44,221 nucleotides of DNA from Lachnospirales bacterium (lineage in GTDB: Bacteria; Bacillota; Clostridia; Lachnospirales; CAMZNU01). The notes under the pieces are model-generated. The model did no database searches. It was not told where the DNA came from and saw only the letters and a program-made list of their open reading frames with translations. Shown here in pieces: positions 10,631 to 30,187 of this stretch (positions within the stretch are counted from its first letter, which is position 1; each line of letters starts with the position of its first letter). Location: positions 1-44,221 of the forward strand of contig JBKECM010000109.1 of the NCBI GenBank assembly GCA_047974615.1, read 5' to 3'. The position numbers and the translations under genes were made by a program.

Positions 10631-11353
10631 TTACAAAACTTGTGAAATGAATTGCTTAGTTCTTTCTTGTTTTGGATTTTGTAACACTTCTTCAGGTGAG
10701 CCTTCTTCAACTATATACCCATCTGCCATAAAAACTACTTTATTTGAAACTTCACGAGCGAAGCCGAGTTCGTGCGTTACAATAATCATACTTATATTTA
10801 AAGCCTTTAAAGATTTTATAACTTCAAGAACTTCCTTTATTACTTCTGGATCTAAAGCAGACGTGGGTTCATCAAATAATATAAATTCAGGTTGCATACA
10901 TAAAGAGCGTGCTATTGCAACCCTTTGTTGCTGACCTCCTGAAAGTTGTTTTGGGTAAGAATTTTCTTTGCCTAATAAACCAACTTTATCTAAATATTCA
11001 AGTGCCAATTCTTTTGCATCAGTTTCACTCTTTCCTAAAACTTTTATAGGGCCTAAAGTTAAATTTTCAAGTATAGATAGGTGAGGGAATAGGTTAAAAG
11101 ATTGAAAGACAAAACCCATTTTTGCACCAAATTCATCTGAAATTAATCTATCATGTGAAATTTCTTCTCCGTCATAAAAAATTTTTCCTGAGTTTTTCTC
11201 TTCAAGACCTTTAATACATCTTAATAAAGTAGATTTTCCAGAACCTGAGGGACCAATGATACACATTATATCACCGATTTCAACATCTAAACTTACATCT
11301 TTTAAAACTTCAAGTTTACCATAATTTTTTTTAATGTTTTCAAGTTTAATCAT
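10631..11353 (-). CDS. polar amino-acid ABC transporter ATPase (GlnQ/ArtR type)
   Basis: GPSGSGKST, LSGGQQQRVAIAR, FDEPTSALDPE; probable start MIKLEN at 11353. Confidence 0.93.
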   Translation of the reverse strand: MIKLENIKKNYGKLEVLKDVSLDVEIGDIMCIIGPSGSGKSTLLRCIKGLEEKNSGKIFYDGEEISHDRLISDEFGAKMGFVFQSFNLFPHLSILENLTLGPIKVLGKSETDAKELALEYLDKVGLLGKENSYPKQLSGGQQQRVAIARSLCMQPEFILFDEPTSALDPEVIKEVLEVIKSLKALNISMIIVTHELGFAREVSNKVVFMADGYIVEEGSPEEVLQNPKQERTKQFISQVL

Positions 11354-12014
11354 TGTTTGCGTATCTCCTTTCCAACTTATGCGAAAAATACGTAACAACA
11401 CCTGTCATTATTAAATAAATAATTGCTGCAAAAACAAGTGGCCAAATAAATTCAGCTGTTTTTGAACTAATAACTTTTGATCGTCCTAAAAGTTCAAGTC
11501 CTCCTATTGCAAAAATCAAAGAGGAATCTTTGATAAGCATAATAAATTCAGATACGAATGGAGGAATTAAACGTCTAAAAGCTTGTGGTAATATAATAAA
11601 CTGCATAGTCTGTTTATAGTTAAGGCCTAAAGTTTTTGCTGCTTCCCATTGTCCTTTATCTATGCTTTCTATACCAGAACGAATAAGTTCAGCAGAGTAT
11701 GCACCGGAGTTTATACCTATGGCAATAATACCAACTATAACAGGGTCCATTGAAATTCGTCCACCAGTTATTGCTGTATAAATAGTAGGAAAACCTAAAA
11801 ATAAAAACATAATTTGTAAAAGCATAGGCGTTCCACGTACAAATTGAATATACACAAAGGCAAATCCATTTAAAATTTTGTTCTTACTTATACGCATTGC
11901 TGCAAAAATTGTACCTAATAGTACGCCTATAATAAGTGCACCTATTGCAACCAATATAGAAAAACCGGCACCTTGCAATAAATATATAAGATTTTCTGTA
12001 TTAAATACACTCAT
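11346..12014 (-). CDS. polar amino-acid ABC transporter permease (HisM/GlnP type)
   Basis: RGTPMLLQ, AELIRSGIESIDKGQWEAA, ILPQA. Confidence 0.93.
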   Translation of the reverse strand: MSVFNTENLIYLLQGAGFSILVAIGALIIGVLLGTIFAAMRISKNKILNGFAFVYIQFVRGTPMLLQIMFLFLGFPTIYTAITGGRISMDPVIVGIIAIGINSGAYSAELIRSGIESIDKGQWEAAKTLGLNYKQTMQFIILPQAFRRLIPPFVSEFIMLIKDSSLIFAIGGLELLGRSKVISSKTAEFIWPLVFAAIIYLIMTGVVTYFSHKLERRYANND

Positions 12015-12015
12015 A

Positions 12016-12768
12016 TTATAAACCGTACTTTTCTAATAAAGCTTGATATTCATCTGTTTCCATAAAAGTTGCTAAATGTTTGTTAAGTTCAGCAGCTAAA
12101 GCTTCATTTTCTTTTTCAAAAACCATTGACATTTCTTCAGATTGTATTTTCTCTTCTAACATAATATAGTTTCCTGTAGCAACAGCGTTTTGTGCTACAC
12201 CTAGATCACAAATATATGCATCTAATTGACCTGCGTTAAGCATAGGTAATGCAACATCAGTGTCAACTAACGTTAGGTCTGTACTTAATGTTTCCGCTAC
12301 GCTTTCACCTGTTGTGCCAAGACCAGCACCTAAAATACCGTCTTTTAGTTCATCAACTGAAGTAATAGCTGAGGCTTTAGGAAGTAGAGCAACTTGAGCA
12401 CTACTATAATATGCATCGCCAAATAAGATTAACTCTTTTCTTTCTTCAGTAACTGAAATACCACTCATACCTAAGTCATACTGTCCTGACTGTACAGCAG
12501 GTATAATTAAGTCAAAGTCAAGTGCTGTATATACAACTTCAAGGCCAGCAAGTTCAGCTACTTCATTAAGTAAGTCAATGTCAAAACCAACCATTTCTGT
12601 TCCGTCCATATACTCAAAAGGAGCATAAGTTGGGTTTGTTGCTGCATAAATTTTACCATCTTCAATAAGACCAAGTTCATTTGTTGTAGTAGTTGATGTG
12701 TTGCCACATGCTGTTAGTGTTCCTAAAGTTAATACAGTTAACAAAGATATTGATAATAATTTTTTCAT
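12016..12768 (-). CDS. amino-acid ABC transporter substrate-binding lipoprotein (SBP_bac_3), probably arginine/basic amino acid
   Basis: Lipobox LTAC, YAPFEY, GFDIDL, TEERKE; start MKKLL at 12768 behind GGAGG. Arginine specificity is inferred only from linkage to argGH and the Arg leader. Confidence 0.88.
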   Translation of the reverse strand: MKKLLSISLLTVLTLGTLTACGNTSTTTTNELGLIEDGKIYAATNPTYAPFEYMDGTEMVGFDIDLLNEVAELAGLEVVYTALDFDLIIPAVQSGQYDLGMSGISVTEERKELILFGDAYYSSAQVALLPKASAITSVDELKDGILGAGLGTTGESVAETLSTDLTLVDTDVALPMLNAGQLDAYICDLGVAQNAVATGNYIMLEEKIQSEEMSMVFEKENEALAAELNKHLATFMETDEYQALLEKYGL

Positions 12769-12772
12769 AATT

Positions 12773-12826
12773 AAATCCTCCAAATTTTAAAAAATAATTT
12801 TGTTTTAATCTTAAAATTGAGAATTT
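12773..12826 (-). promoter_or_regulatory. SD-sequestering hairpin of the binding-protein gene
   Basis: mRNA AAAUUCUCAAUUUUAA (12826-12811) pairs with UUAAAAUU[UG]GAGGAUUU (12790-12773): 8+8 bp with a 2-nt bulge. Confidence 0.6.
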
Positions 12827-12876
12827 TGCCGTAATATTAAGGGGAAAAGTTTCATTAAATTCAATTTTGTTATCAT
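12811..12876 (-). CDS. putative 21-aa leader peptide MITKLNLMKLFPLILRQNSQF upstream of the ABC operon
   Basis: AAGGAGG (12889-12883) 6 nt before the ATG; only Arg is CGG at codon 16; 3' end overlaps an anti-SD arm. Confidence 0.7.
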   Translation of the reverse strand: MITKLNLMKLFPLILRQNSQF

Positions 12877-12905
12877 AATTTTCCTCCTTATTTTTGATTT
12901 TATAT

Positions 12906-12934
12906 AGTATATCATTATTTAAAATAAATTTCAA
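12906..12934 (-). promoter_or_regulatory. sigma-A promoter for leader plus ABC operon
   Basis: TTGAAA-17 nt-TATACT with extended TG. Confidence 0.65.
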
Positions 12935-13031
12935 CAATAAATTTGATTTTTTTTGTAAAAGTTTTTTGCTAATAATGTTTGTTATAAAACTTTTTATATA
13001 ATTTCCATAAAACTATTTGTATATTTTTATA

Positions 13032-13060
13032 TTTACAACTTTTAAAATACGTGTTACAAT
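13032..13060 (+). promoter_or_regulatory. sigma-A promoter for leader plus argGH
   Basis: TTTACA-17 nt-TACAAT with extended TG. Confidence 0.65.
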
Positions 13061-13094
13061 TAAAATAAGTTTTATTTAGGAGGTATAATATTAT

Positions 13095-13160
13095 ATGTAT
13101 GTAAGAAATAAATATAATGTAAAGTTCCAAAAATATATTGGTATATTTAAACTGCGGTAA
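13095..13160 (+). CDS. putative 21-aa leader peptide MYVRNKYNVKFQKYIGIFKLR upstream of argG
   Basis: AGGAGGT at 13078-13084; last sense codon is CGG (13155-13157) followed by TAA. Confidence 0.7.
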   Translation: MYVRNKYNVKFQKYIGIFKLR

Positions 13161-13217
13161 TGAAATTTTTATGAAAATTATATTAAACAAATTTAAAATA
13201 TTATGGAGGTTTCATTA
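13158..13217 (+). promoter_or_regulatory. SD-sequestering hairpin of argG
   Basis: UAAUGAAAUUUUUAUGA (13158-13174) pairs with UUAUGGAGGUUUCAUUA (13201-13217): 17 bp including 5 G-U pairs, covering the SD and the A of AUG. Confidence 0.7.
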
Positions 13218-14434
13218 TGAAAAAATATAAAAAAATCGTTTTAGCTTATTCTGGTGGTCTTGATACATCTGTTATTATTCCTTGGTTAAAAGAAAATTAT
13301 GATGGTTGTGAAGTTATCGCCGTTGCTGGTAATGTGGGACAAGCTGATGAACTTGATGGTTTAGAAGAAAAAGCACTTAAAACTGGTGCATCAAAATTAT
13401 ATATTGAAAATTTAACTGAAGAATTTGTAAATGAATATATTATTCCTACTGTAAAAGCTAATGCAAAATATGAAAATAAATATTTACTTGGTACTGCTTT
13501 TGCTAGACCTTTGATTGGTAGAAGAATAGCTGAAATAGCTTTAAAAGAAGGTGCTGATGCAATAGCTCATGGCTGTACTGGTAAAGGAAACGATCAAGTT
13601 CGTTTTGAACTTGCTATTAAATCTGTTGCTCCTGAAATGGAAATTATTGTACCATGGAGAATTTGGGACATTAAAGGTCGTGATGAAGAAATAGCTTACG
13701 CAAAAGAAAAAGGTATTCCTTTAAAATTCTCTGCAGAAAATAGCTATTCTCGTGATAGAAATATATGGCATATTTCTCATGAAGGTTTAGATCTTGAATT
13801 TCCTGAAAATGAACCAAACTATGAAACATTACTTCAACTTGGTGTTTCGCCTGAAAAAGCGCCTGATGTTGCTACTTATATATCTTTAGATTTTGAAAAA
13901 GGAGTTCCTGTTGCTGTTAATGGTGAGAAAAAAACTGCTACAGAAATTTTAACATACTTAAATGAAATAGGTGGTAAAAATGGTATTGGTATCATTGATA
14001 TAGTTGAAAACCGTTTGGTAGGTATGAAATCTCGTGGCGTTTATGAAACACCGGGTGGAACTATTCTATATCACGCACATAGTGTTTTAGAAGAACTTTG
14101 TTTAGATAGACAAACTATGCACTTTAAGCATGGTGTTGCTATTAAATTTTCTGAAATTGTTTATGATGGGCAATGGTATACACCTTTAAGAGAAGCATTA
14201 TCTGCTTTTATTGATAAAACTCAAGAAAAAGTAACAGGACAAGTTAAACTTAAATTGTATAAAGGCAATATTATAAATGCTGGTGTTATTAGTCCTTATT
14301 CTTTATATTCAGAAGAAATTGCTACGTTCAATGAAGATGAAGTTTACAATCAAAGTGACTCTACAGGTTTTATAAACTTATTTGGTTTACCTATTAAAGT
14401 TGCAGCGTTACTTGAGCAAAAAAAATTAAAATAA
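13217..14434 (+). CDS. argG: argininosuccinate synthase
   Basis: [40 protein letters not shown]. Confidence 0.98.
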
Positions 14435-14549: not shown

Positions 14550-15920
14550 ATGAAACTTTGGGACGGAAGATTTTCTAAAAACGCAAGTCAAGAACTAAAT
14601 GATTTTAACTCTTCAATTTTTTTTGATAAGAGAATGTATAAAGAAGATATATTAGGCTCTATTTCACATAGTAAAATTCTTGTTATTACAAATATTATTA
14701 CTATTGAGGAATCGGAAACAATAGTTAAAGAACTTGAAAAAATTTTGAGTGATATAGAAGAAGGTAGTTTAGATATTGATTTAACAGCTGAAGATATTCA
14801 CTCTTTTGTGGAAATGGAACTTACAAAAAGAATAGGTGATATAGGAAAAAAACTTCATACTGGTAGAAGTAGAAATGATCAAGTAGCCGTTGACATAAGA
14901 TTATATTTAAAAAACGATGTAGTTGAAGTAATTCAAATGCTTAAAAATTTAATCAATGTAATTTGTGACAAAGCAAATAATCATAAAGAAACAATTATGC
15001 CTGGCTATACACATCTTCAACGTGCTCAACCTATTACTTTTGCACATCACATACTTGCATATGGTTCAATGTTTTTACGTGACATTAAACGTCTTGAAAA
15101 TGCATTGGATAATATGAATTATTCTCCTCTTGGTGCTGGTGCACTTGCAGGTACTACATATAATATTGATAGAGAATTTACTGCAAAACAACTTGGGTTT
15201 TTTGGCCCTACAATTAATAGTTTAGATAGTGTATCAGATAGAGATTTTTCTATGGAAATTTTGTCAGCCTTGTCAATTACTATGGTACATTTGTCAAGAT
15301 TTTCTGAAGAAATAATTATGTGGTGTTCTTGGGAATTTAAGTTTATTGAACTTGATGATGCTTTTTCTACGGGTTCTTCTATTATGCCTCAGAAAAAAAA
15401 TCCAGATATAGCTGAACTTGTTCGTGGTAAAACGGGACGTGTTTTTGGCGACCTTATGTCAATTTTAACCGTTATGAAAGGTTTGCCACTTGCTTATAAT
15501 AAAGATATGCAAGAAGATAAGGAAGGCGTTTTTGATGCTTTAGACACAGTGAAAATGTGTCTTTTAGCTTTTACTCCTATGATTGACACAATGAAAATCA
15601 ATGAAGAAAATATGAGAAGTGCTGCTGCTAAAGGTTTTATAAATGCAACAGACTGTGCTGATTATCTTGTAAAAAAAGGCTTAGCTTTTAGAGATGCTTA
15701 CAAAATTGTAGGTAAGTTAGTTTCTTATTGCATTGAAAATAATAAAATTTTAGAAAATTTAACAATGGAAGAATATAAAAATAATTCTGAAATTTTTGAC
15801 AATGATATATATGAAAATATTTCTTTATATAAATGTGTAAACGAAAGAAAATCATTTGGTGGTCCTTCAAAAGAGTCTATTGAATCACAAATTAAATTTT
15901 TATTAAATTCTTTAGCTTAG
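14550..15920 (+). CDS. argH: argininosuccinate lyase
   Basis: [43 protein letters not shown]. Confidence 0.98.
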
Positions 15921-15933
15921 TTAGGAGTTTTCT

Positions 15934-16917
15934 ATGAATAAAAAAGCTACAATTAATGATGTAGCAAAGTTGGCAGGGGTTTCTATTACTACAGTTTCTC
16001 GAACGATTAACGATAACTATCCTGTAAAAAAAGAAACAAAAGAAAAAATATTTAAGGCAATAGAAATACTTAATTTTACACCAAATGAACTTGCTGTTAG
16101 TATGATTACTAAAAAAACAAAGACTATTGGCGTTGTTATTCCAAGTATTTCTAATGCTTTTTTCAGTACACTTGTAAAAGGTATAAATGAAGTAGTTGAG
16201 AAAAATAATTACACTCTTTTAGTGTGCACAAGTAACAATAACGAGAAAGAAATTGTAGTTAAACTTGTAAGTAGACAGGTTGATGGAATTATTATTGCTG
16301 ATGGTAATCTTGACAGTAAAAAAGACTTTTATAATATGATACAAAAAACTATACCTTTAATTTTTATAAATAGTTATGATGAAAATTTCAATTATGTAAG
16401 TTGTGATCAAAAGAAAGGTGCGTACGATGCACTAAATTTTTTAAAAGAGAAAGGTCATCAAAATGTACTTTTTATTAGAGGTAACGAAAATAGTGAATCT
16501 TATAATTTAAAAGAAAAAATTTTTTGTGAAGTTTTTGAAAAAAATGAAATTTTGGTCGTAGATAGTGGAAATAAGGACAATGCAATTTTAAATACTAAAA
16601 ACGATATAGTTAATTTTTATGAAAAAAATAGAAATATTACTGGTATATTTGCTTGTAATGATCTTATGGCTGTAGGTGTAATTAAAGGTTTAAATCACTT
16701 GAAAATCAATATTCCTAATGAAGTTGAAGTTATAGGTTTTGACAATACTTTTTTATGCGAACTTGTTGCACCTACTTTAAGTACTGTTAGTCAACATATA
16801 ACAACTTTAGGAAAAATATCTTGCGAAAAAATATTGCAACTTATTGAAAAAAATGATAAAATAAATGTATTAATTAATTGTGATTTGGTTTTACGTGAAA
16901 GTTGTAGATTAAAATAA
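15934..16917 (+). CDS. LacI family transcriptional regulator (probable galactose repressor)
   Basis: TINDVAKLAGVSITTVSR HTH, NDLMAVG, GFDN, PTLSTV, RES. Confidence 0.93.
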   Translation: MNKKATINDVAKLAGVSITTVSRTINDNYPVKKETKEKIFKAIEILNFTPNELAVSMITKKTKTIGVVIPSISNAFFSTLVKGINEVVEKNNYTLLVCTSNNNEKEIVVKLVSRQVDGIIIADGNLDSKKDFYNMIQKTIPLIFINSYDENFNYVSCDQKKGAYDALNFLKEKGHQNVLFIRGNENSESYNLKEKIFCEVFEKNEILVVDSGNKDNAILNTKNDIVNFYEKNRNITGIFACNDLMAVGVIKGLNHLKINIPNEVEVIGFDNTFLCELVAPTLSTVSQHITTLGKISCEKILQLIEKNDKINVLINCDLVLRESCRLK

Positions 16918-29545: not shown

Positions 29546-29618
29546 AAGTTGGTAATATGTTGTAAAATGTAATTGGTAACGCCTAAAAAACTCCGTTTAT
29601 TTGTCGGAATGTATTGTT

Positions 29619-30008
29619 GAAGGTGCTGATAAAGTCAAAAAGAAAAAATTTATTGTAGTTGGAATGTAAACAAAAATAGTGAGAACGTATTTGCATATTT
29701 TTATTCAGTAAAAATATATGACGAGGGCTAATTTTTGTGTAGTAAAGAGGAGAATTTTCAATTAAAAAATGAAAATTTTTAAGCATCTTCAAAGAAGTGC
29801 GACCTTATGAACAAGCAAAACAACGATTTTGCGTTAAGTGAGTAAGGAAAAAGTCAAATGACCTTTCCTCAGTTACGGCTTTCGCTGTAACTTTCGGCAG
29901 ATTAGCCACCTAAGACTACGCTTAGTGGCGAGGCTAATCTGTACGATTGAAATTATCTTATTGAAAAACTCTCAAATTAATTTTTTTCTAACCTTTTTCA
30001 GCACCTTC
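29619..30008. mobile_element. long (390 bp) divergent MITE family A copy with a hairpin-rich interior; no TSD
   Basis: Ends GAAGGTGCTGATAAAG / CTTTTTCAGCACCTTC; shares AAAAATAGTGAGA and CGAG.GCTAATTTT blocks with the other copies. Confidence 0.8.
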
Positions 30009-30187
30009 CCAAATTAATCAATGATACCAATTTTAAATTCAAAAGTAGAAATTTTATTTAAGTTATGGTAAAGTCTAATTTAGATTACACTGACAAAAGG
30101 TAAGCACTAATATCTGTAATTAGTCAACTTAGAAGTGTTTCTGTGACAAAAGAACAAAAGAATGTTTGTAATTTCAATTATTTTGTA

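Follow-up and report, generated by a model that had tools for sequence, protein, structure and literature searches.

The window analysed here is the whole stretch of 44,221 nucleotides (nt) of DNA from a Lachnospirales bacterium. It contains an operon for a predicted polar amino-acid ATP-binding cassette (ABC) importer on the minus strand, which is divergent to argG-argH on the plus strand. In this study, we investigated the 21-codon open reading frame (ORF) that precedes the transporter genes and its possible role as an arginine-sensing leader. The genome from which the window comes is referred to as the source genome (G000), and the only congeneric genome found, a Lachnospirales metagenome-assembled genome (MAG), as the congener (G001). 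The features of the transporter leader are as follows, with coordinates of the window.

12906 to 12934, minus strand: promoter-like site of the transporter operon, TTGAAA, 17 nt, (TG)TATACT (consensus scan, 10 of 12 matches plus the TG extension)
12883 to 12889, minus strand: Shine-Dalgarno sequence (SD) of the leader, AAGGAGG, 6 nt (AAAATT) 5' of the ATG at 12876 (read from the sequence)
12811 to 12876, minus strand: leader ORF of 21 codons plus UAA, MITKLNLMKLFPLILRQNSQF and stop (read from the sequence and found in the small-ORF scan)
12838 to 12849, minus strand: pyrimidine-rich leader codons 10-13 (CUUUUCCCCUUA), able to pair with the leader's own SD in a 5' hairpin (present in the minimum free energy, MFE, fold)
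12829 to 12831, minus strand: CGG, the sole Arg codon of the leader and the proposed stall site (read from the sequence, with codon counts)
12811 to 12826, minus strand: arm pairing with the ribosome-binding site (RBS), or anti-RBS arm (AAAUUCUCAAUUUUAA), formed by the last leader codons and the stop (best RBS partner in RNAduplex, and MFE fold)
12773 to 12790, minus strand: RBS arm UUAAAAUUUGGAGGAUUU with the SD GGAGG (12781 to 12777) of the binding-protein gene (sequence, MFE fold and RNAduplex)

The leader lies about 10 nt from the predicted transcript start, and its stop codon UAA occupies 12813 to 12811 on the minus strand. Its tail pairs with the stretch from UUAAAAUU to GAGGAUUU, which contains the GGAGG of the binding-protein gene (ATG at 12768). 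The sequence therefore holds a short ORF with its own RBS, including a strong SD, upstream of the gene that would be regulated, as expected of translational attenuation. The consensus scan showed no excess of promoter-like sites in the region over shuffled sequences, and the sites of the transporter operon and of argG are consensus matches only. The initial annotation had placed the leader ORF at 12876-12811 on the minus strand, with AAGGAGG at 6 nt and CGG at 12831-12829, and all of these coordinates and sequences were correct on reading.

The divergent argG-argH operon is preceded by a second small ORF that also contains CGG.

13032 to 13060, plus strand: promoter-like site of argG-argH, TTTACA, 17 nt, TG-TACAAT (consensus match only)
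13095 to 13160, plus strand: argG leader ORF of 21 codons, MYVRNKYNVKFQKYIGIFKLR and stop, with CGG (13155 to 13157) directly before UAA and AGGAGG (13078 to 13083) 11 nt upstream
13157 to 13174, plus strand: anti-RBS arm of the argG leader (GUAAUGAAAUUUUUAUGA), overlapping the last G of CGG (duplex of -16.2 kcal/mol)
13201 to 13218, plus strand: argG RBS arm, with the SD GGAGG and the start codon (MFE fold and RNAduplex)
13217 to 14434, plus strand: argG, argininosuccinate synthase (NF001770, 591.5 bits, above the cut-off)
14550 to 15920, plus strand: argH, argininosuccinate lyase (TIGR00838, 641.7 bits, above the cut-off)

The argG leader ends CUG-CGG-UAA. At 13158 to 13220 of the window, an AUG that overlaps the stop codon of this leader (UAAUG) starts a mini-ORF of four codons, and the UGA of this mini-ORF overlaps a further AUG, whose frame crosses the argG SD and start codon. 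The divergent RBS regions of the two operons (12760 to 12800 and 13185 to 13225) form an inverted repeat of 41 nt with 71% complementarity. By this measure the two leader-RBS modules resemble each other, and they may have originated by inverted duplication.

Rarity of CGG and conservation of the leaders

We determined how often CGG is used in the source genome, whose assembly comprises 2.37 Mb in 205 contigs at 29% G+C. CGG was the rarest sense codon, with 55 occurrences among the 608,548 codons of 1,634 ORFs of at least 150 amino acids (aa). It makes up 0.33% of the Arg codons, and AGA is about 165 times commoner in coding sequence. Small ORFs were then collected under fixed limits: intergenic, preceded by an SD, 8-45 codons long and at most 250 nt upstream of a same-strand gene. 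Five of the 82 small ORFs obtained from the source genome contain CGG, and two of the five are the arg-locus leaders. The other three were rejected as leaders: a dispersed-repeat copy (MTFPQ(L/I)R ORFs); an ORF on contig C49, which overlaps a terminator-like hairpin; and an ORF on contig C118, which lies inside a gene with an in-frame TGA (a selenoprotein gene). With the leaders set aside, the background is 3 CGG in 1,566 codons, from which a chance CGG is expected in about 4% of 21-codon ORFs, and in both of two ORFs at the same locus with a probability of about 0.15%. A broader first scan for an SD, a small ORF and CGG (35/546 matches) was dropped as too permissive, most matches lying inside genes.

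CGG is also the rarest codon in a 400-kb sample of the congener (11 of 106,201). It occurs there in 2 of 16 leader-like ORFs, both of them the arg leaders, which the sample was chosen to contain. When ORFs of the source genome were aligned to this sample, nine CGG positions faced Arg six times, Leu once, Asn once and a gap once. CGG thus appears to be decoded as Arg in the source genome. The tRNA-Arg genes in its assembly have the anticodons ACG, UCG and UCU, among 30 tRNAs in all.

The dispersed repeats are modules of about 65 and about 125 nt with 75-98% identity, which form a somewhat G+C-richer patchwork at 29618 to 30010 of the window and on more than 60 other contigs of the source genome, often at contig ends. 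This patchwork, in which Rfam gave nothing at the gathering threshold, carries the small ORF MTFPQLRLSL with an in-frame CGG. The fragmentation of the assembly is probably due to the repeats. Genes with in-frame TGA that resemble glycine-reductase selenoproteins B and A lie on contigs C118 (~10440) and C170 (~16684 to 16815), and the source genome has a tRNA-Sec gene, consistent with selenocysteine use.

We next compared the leaders with those of relatives. This lineage is represented by few genomes. A GTDB-wide scan with the binding protein found one relative, at 76% identity, in the congener (locus L001), and an order-wide search of 401 genomes matched the binding protein only in the source genome and the congener at E <= 1e-38. 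A JGI metagenome scan gave six loci, all at 27-32% identity, with no usable relative among them. No Arg-codon leader was found at 28 loci of distant binding-protein homologs, except one weak 10-codon TTG ORF in L015. Upstream regions of argG were compared across the order (n=98; 30 + 68), and CGG leaders occurred only in the source genome and the congener. Reading of the sequences placed the argG-upstream CGG candidate in L037 inside the C-terminus of argF and the candidates in L038, L043 and L050 in the C-terminus of the upstream gene, and all four were rejected. Upstream of argF in the congener there is no leader, just a terminator and an SD. Another argG of the order (L119, genome G009) is immediately preceded, from about 260 to 40 nt upstream, by a motif of some 100 nt (ATATGAAAGTCTAATTTGCAAACTTACTCGTAAGGATTTGGA...) that occurs twice in tandem and had no Rfam match at E <= 0.1. 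The pair could be an unknown tandem cis-regulatory RNA.

The transporter leader of the congener (L001 2343..2402) has AAGGAGG, six bases and then MELYKTISLLPSGLRCFIF with a stop, and its sole Arg codon is again CGG (L001 2385..2387). An orthologous leader lacking an Arg codon had been named beforehand as the finding that would speak against the initial annotation, and the one ortholog available (n=1) keeps CGG. The argG leader of the congener (L033) is LNNFFNKYSAIPFYFDLKVKLRCRKSL with a stop, contains CUA-CGG and has a TTG start 11 nt after GGAGG. The orthologous leaders were compared by anchored pairwise alignment, since MAFFT misaligned the transporter leader regions. Identical columns number 38/67 and 41/86 (57% and 48% of nt), with indels, and the proteins are 76% (binding protein) and 84% (ArgG) identical. 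All four leaders have a start codon and an SD, at a spacing of 6 nt in both transporter leaders and 11 nt in both argG leaders, and a Leu codon followed by CGG. The conserved blocks of the transporter leader pair are CUUUU(C/G)CC, UACGG and the tail with the stop codon; as read from this alignment, they are the three elements of the attenuation model proposed below. The transporter leaders have one Arg codon each, and the argG leaders two that are not adjacent (AGA and CGG in the source genome, CGG and AGG in the congener). A run of several cognate regulatory codons, as in trpL or hisL, was not found in these leaders.

In the congener the transporter operon (L084 17545..20000 and the start of L085; G001:C37) comprises the leader, the binding protein, the permease, the ATPase and a second binding-protein paralog with 50% identity. 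The operon of the source genome has a single binding-protein gene.

Predicted pairing of the leader tails with the downstream ribosome-binding sites

In the free MFE folds of all four leader regions, the downstream SD lies in a helix with the leader tail. We then used RNAduplex to search the whole upstream transcript for the best partner of each RBS (-22..+3). The best duplex of the transporter RBS is with the leader tail, at -10.5 kcal/mol, and it starts 2 nt after CGG. The pairing of the leader tail with the binding-protein SD that the initial annotation had drawn is therefore present both in the MFE fold and as the best upstream-RBS duplex. Its further proposal of the same switch at argG agrees with our data as well, since the argG leader also has CGG and a tail that pairs with the argG RBS, and both leaders recur with CGG in the congener. 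For every one of the four leaders, the segment that pairs best with the RBS has its first paired base between -1 and +2 nt relative to the end of CGG. A ribosome covers about 12 nt on the 5' side of its P site and 15 nt on the 3' side, and one stalled at CGG would thus cover the beginning of the arm in all four leaders, as in translational attenuation.

The pairing of tail and RBS was compared with 1000 mononucleotide shuffles. The fraction of shuffles that paired as well was 0.008 for the transporter leader and 0.001 for the argG leader (shorter tail) of the source genome, and 0.029 and 0.000 for the leaders of the congener. Among 57 small ORFs of the source genome, the two leaders ranked 4th and 7th by this pairing. 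In a control with 752 genes of the source genome that have non-coding sequence upstream, the upstream-RBS duplex of argG ranked 16th. The folds and the shuffles thus agree that a leader segment pairs with the downstream RBS, as translational attenuation predicts. These results demonstrate the anatomy of the leaders, the rarity of their CGG codon, their conservation in the congener and the coupling in position between CGG and the anti-RBS arm.

A second possible hairpin lies at the 5' end, where the leader's own SD pairs with pyrimidine-rich leader codons 8-13 (10-13 in the transporter leader). In the transporter leader of the source genome this duplex has -11.3 kcal/mol and was matched by 5/1000 shuffles. 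The shuffle fractions were 0.005 for this leader, 0.186 for the argG leader of the source genome, and 0.028 and 0.004 for the other two, so that the hairpin is significant in three of the four leaders. The Phe, Pro and Leu residues common to the leader peptides can be attributed to these pyrimidine-rich codons, which complement the leader SD.

The peptides could also be thought to act themselves, as metabolite-sensing arrest peptides of the TnaC, SpeFL or fungal arginine attenuator peptide type that bind free arginine, citrulline or ornithine in the ribosome tunnel. The leaders are short and hydrophobic, Leu-Arg occurs in all four, and Pro lies 3-12 residues upstream of Leu-Arg in three. However, the orthologous peptides are barely alignable, with only Leu-Arg in common and 0 to 5 residues after Arg, and the conserved motif expected of an arrest peptide was not found. 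For arrest by the peptide any Arg codon should serve, whereas all four leaders have the rarest one, CGG, and the Pro, Phe and Leu codons are explained at the RNA level. We therefore regard an arrest peptide as very improbable.

It was also considered whether the small ORF is translated at all. AAGGAGG might be an SD-like element that stabilises the 5' end of the mRNA, as is known in Firmicutes, or part of a structured 5' untranslated region, and the in-frame CGG a coincidence kept by the short evolutionary distance. This would agree with the sequestration of the leader SD in the predicted 5' hairpin, with weak fold z-scores, with the presence of the leaders in one genus only and with the roughly 4% of 21-codon ORFs expected to hold CGG by chance. 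On the other hand, a start codon followed by an open frame is present in all four leaders although the sequence is very rich in stops, and CGG lies at the edge of the anti-RBS arm in each of them. Moreover, frame and CGG were kept while the flanking leader sequence fell to 48-57% identity with indels. These results make an untranslated ORF unlikely.

We also searched the locus for other kinds of control. ArgR (TIGR01529 and PF02863 models) was found neither in the source genome and the congener nor in two other genomes of the family; the models found it in control genomes and in G007, a genome of another family of the order. No T-box (RF00230) was found in the window at the gathering threshold or in 12600..13400 at E up to 10. 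The T-box model gave 13 matches elsewhere in the source genome, and none of these lies before the arginyl-tRNA synthetase gene, as judged by eye from the downstream ORFs. Rfam gave no match in the window at gathering thresholds, just unrelated sub-threshold matches attributable to chance in 12600..13400 (E up to 10), and two chance-level matches at E up to 0.1 on five related loci. A scan of the intergenic region for repeats and palindromes found no convincing operator, just AT-rich low-complexity matches.

Control of transcription was considered in the same way. A stalled or released ribosome could control a terminator or the access of Rho, and not translation initiation. In G007, the region from about 220 to 30 nt upstream of argG (L035) has a leader, MLNLNVAVTSQVNVLGLRRRMQALVSCVFSEGE, with an AAGGAG SD and three consecutive Arg codons (CGC CGC CGU), and after it a long hairpin with a U-run. 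The terminator was read by eye, and the genome carries an ArgR-like gene. The element has the appearance of a transcription attenuator for arginine, and control of argG by ribosome-mediated attenuation of transcription would thus exist in the order. At the locus studied here, however, no terminator-like site of the trpL or hisL type was found in 12500..13400 on either strand, and the sole strong helix has the SD and start region at its end in place of a U-run. Rho-dependent termination on stalling would also have the wrong sign for an uptake or biosynthesis operon. Transcription attenuation is therefore highly unlikely for the two leaders.

Proposed arginine sensing and the arginine supply genes

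With moderate confidence, we propose that the 21-codon ORF is a regulatory leader peptide gene that would sense arginine by erm-like translational attenuation at a hungry CGG codon. When the Arg-tRNA that reads CGG is plentiful, the ribosome would reach the stop codon and leave; the hairpin would then close over the SD and the transporter would be poorly translated. CGG is probably decoded through wobble by a lone tRNA-Arg(UCG). Under arginine shortage, the ribosome would pause with CGG in the A site, and its footprint would cover the first ~10 nt of the anti-RBS arm. With the arm covered, the downstream SD would stay free and the transporter would be made. We infer in this way that the leader is translated, that the ribosome stalls, that the effect is activating and that it depends on arginine. 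The stalled ribosome near the 5' end may also shield the mRNA from decay. The latching of the leader SD by codons 10-13 may, more speculatively, restrict leader translation to the first, co-transcriptional ribosome. With the twin device before argG-argH, uptake would be induced jointly with the two final steps of biosynthesis, in a genus for which ArgR was not found. The predicted sign of regulation is the one expected for an uptake operon and for argG-argH.

The effect of a stalled ribosome was examined with a modelled footprint. With the ribosome at CGG, the mean probability that GGAGG is unpaired rose from 0.20 to 0.54 for the transporter and from 0.00 to 0.32 for argG in the source genome, and from 0.06 to 0.41 for argG in the congener. 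The distance from the leader stop to the binding-protein start is 42 nt in the source genome and 98 nt in the congener.

Several points weigh against the attenuation model. For the transporter of the congener the same calculation did not free GGAGG (0.21 free, 0.16 stalled at CGG). With the footprint at the stop codon, the SD was about as open as with a stalled ribosome (0.44, 0.31, 0.45 and 0.40). A terminating ribosome would thus cover the arm as well, and regulation would depend on dwell time alone. The transporter upstream-RBS duplex ranks 199th of the 752 control genes, an ordinary energy for an AT-rich genome, and the argument therefore rests on the position and the conservation of the pairing and not on its strength. 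Whole-region fold z-scores are weak (-0.78 for the transporter of the source genome, -1.75 and -1.92), and the 5' hairpin of the argG leader of the source genome is not significant (0.186). The 11-nt spacing between SD and start in both argG leaders, with a TTG start in that of the congener, is a further point, as is the restriction to two genomes of one genus, so that the four leaders amount to about two independent observations. The tRNA set of the fragmented assembly is incomplete (30 tRNAs), and a further tRNA-Arg(CCG) may therefore exist. In selective tRNA charging, the isoacceptors that read rare codons are not always the first to lose charge on starvation. In the Salmonella leader orf34, frequent Arg codons are reported to have been no less effective than rare ones (PMC6386406).

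The similar effect of a terminating ribosome bears on a further explanation, in which the leader is translated and CGG is just a constitutive slow codon or spacer that serves folding timing or translational coupling, with any arginine control coming from elsewhere. A CGG read by wobble would be slow at any arginine level, and the terminating ribosome covers the same arm (the probability of being unpaired at the stop is about that of the stalled state). An AUG lies at most 5 nt from the leader stop in three of the four leaders and could support re-initiation; this could reflect termination-reinitiation or chance in AT-rich sequence. Against a constitutive pause, both operons that bear the device serve arginine supply, no other clean CGG leader was found among the 82 candidates, and neither ArgR nor a T-box was found to supply arginine control. 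We consider a constitutive pause unlikely. The restriction of clean CGG leaders to the arg locus, where no rival sensor was seen, speaks for attenuation by a hungry CGG.

The genes of the transporter operon are as follows.

12016 to 12768, minus strand: substrate-binding lipoprotein, family 3, 250 aa (PF00497, 114.6 bits)
11346 to 12014, minus strand: ABC transporter permease, 222 aa (PF00528, 83.3 bits; NCBIfam polar amino-acid permease models all below their cut-offs)
10631 to 11401, minus strand: ABC transporter ATPase (PF00005, 125.6 bits; GlnQ/TcyN-like matches below cut-offs)

The ATPase start is uncertain, the longest ORF running from 11401 and the family matches from about residue 17. 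The SBP_bac_3, BPD_transp_1 and ABC_tran domains lie in adjacent genes, all above their cut-offs, as expected of a polar amino-acid ABC importer. The binding protein stays under every NCBIfam equivalog cut-off (TIGR01096, 118.6 vs 256 bits; ArtJ_Ecoli, 71.8 vs 510; GlnH, 98.5 vs 303), and it was not assigned to the arginine-specific ArtJ/ArtI/LAO equivalogs. Its closest relatives in the PDB are the GlnPQ substrate-binding domains, Geobacillus ArtJ and AncQR, a reconstructed Gln/Arg binder; these closest solved relatives bind Gln or Arg/Lys/His. Compared with ArtJ, it has Asn for Asp of the N-terminal 'TD' motif and Glu for Gln of 'TTGQ'.

The source genome, at an estimated completeness of 97.4%, contains argG-argH, and argF, argJ, argC and argR were not found in it. 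For argF there was no match above the cut-off, and the best tblastn match with ArgF of the congener was 27% identical. The congener has argF, and argJ and argC were not found there. Without argF, argJ and argC, the source organism could make arginine only from imported citrulline, which makes citrulline as good a substrate candidate as arginine; since the congener has argF, ornithine is also possible there. This gene content suggests auxotrophy for arginine in the genus, with salvage of citrulline or ornithine. A literature search, with subscription journals outside its scope, found no characterised citrulline-binding ABC protein. The initial annotation had taken the leader as independent evidence that the transporter carries arginine or a precursor. 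The context favours this (the divergent argG-argH, the shared kind of leader and the missing argF, argJ and argC), whereas the protein itself passed no equivalog cut-off. Arginine, citrulline or ornithine would therefore be a reasonable, if indirect, assignment of the substrate.

A broader reading can be offered tentatively, and we hold it to be rather doubtful. The genus might run its whole arginine economy, that is, arginine or citrulline uptake and ArgG-ArgH salvage, through a sensor with two hairpins and a single hungry codon. The transporter would then import citrulline (or arginine), and its binding protein would represent a clade seen in none of 399 other genomes of the order. If the sensing model is true, a Firmicute (gut-type) without ArgR would sense arginine via the ribosome with one copy of its rarest codon, and an otherwise unassignable ABC transporter would gain a testable function, arginine or citrulline uptake feeding ArgG-ArgH. 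It would also provide a search rule: anti-SD arms bordered by whichever codon is rarest for an amino acid could reveal similar unannotated leaders in other AT-rich genomes. If it is false, the locus would be an ordinary divergent promoter region with chance small ORFs.

Comparison with known leader systems

In classical leader-peptide transcription attenuation, of which trpL, hisL and leuL are examples, the position of the leader ribosome is set by the supply of charged tRNA and selects an RNA structure. The same would apply to the leaders described here. Unlike those systems, each has one regulatory codon, no intrinsic terminator was found at the locus, and the output would be the accessibility of the SD. 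As with the T-box (RF00230), the charging state of a specific tRNA would control genes of amino-acid supply; unlike the T-box, sensing would proceed through a translating ribosome and not by direct binding of the tRNA.

Translational attenuation of the erm/cat type, for example at the ermC leader, offers the closest parallel in arrangement: a short leader ORF has its own SD, and the stall site lies directly 5' of the arm that sequesters the downstream SD. In both cases the message may in addition be stabilised by the stalled ribosome. Stalling in the proposed model would be triggered by a hungry codon at low Arg-tRNA, whereas in erm/cat the trigger is an antibiotic together with a specific nascent peptide. 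The targets are arginine supply and resistance, respectively, and the leader peptide is not conserved here. In erm/cat systems, stalling is thought to melt the inhibitory stem-loop and to turn on translation, which is likewise proposed here (PMC5118997, PMC5499644).

Arginine-codon leaders are already known. The speF leader orf34 of Salmonella senses arginine with a rare AGG-CGG, and pausing alters the folding and stability of the mRNA, as reported (PMC6386406). Both orf34 and the leaders found here have Arg codons in an upstream ORF, and in both cases pausing would give a stable, translatable message at low arginine. In contrast, two consecutive Arg codons in a conserved peptide domain, the involvement of Rho and RNase G, and ornithine decarboxylase as the target are reported for orf34 (PMC6386406).

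In the S. aureus leader rbfL, a ribosome paused at a rare AGG occludes the rbf RBS and represses under arginine limitation, as reported (PMC13009471, Nat Commun 2026). As with rbfL, the leaders here would be short unannotated leader peptides in which a rare Arg codon read by a scarce tRNA controls downstream translation initiation (PMC13009471). They differ in codon and target, with CGG here and, as reported for rbfL, AGG read by tRNA-Arg(UCU) and a biofilm regulator (PMC13009471). They differ also in geometry: the rbfL ribosome is described as sitting on an overlapping RBS and repressing, whereas the RBS here, 42-98 nt beyond the leader, would be unmasked according to the prediction, with activation as the result (PMC13009471). 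A leader that overlaps or abuts the RBS, as occlusion of the rbfL type would need, was not found. If the model holds, the transporter leader would be an activating, SD-unmasking counterpart to the repressing rbfL leader. In the literature, with subscription journals outside the search, no description was found, for Clostridia, of a leader peptide for arginine in front of either argG or the genes of an arginine ABC transporter. The leaders described here thus differ from the known arginine-codon leaders in their target genes, in the proposed SD unmasking at 42-98 nt with activation, in the single rarest codon at the edge of the arm and in the second hairpin over the leader SD.

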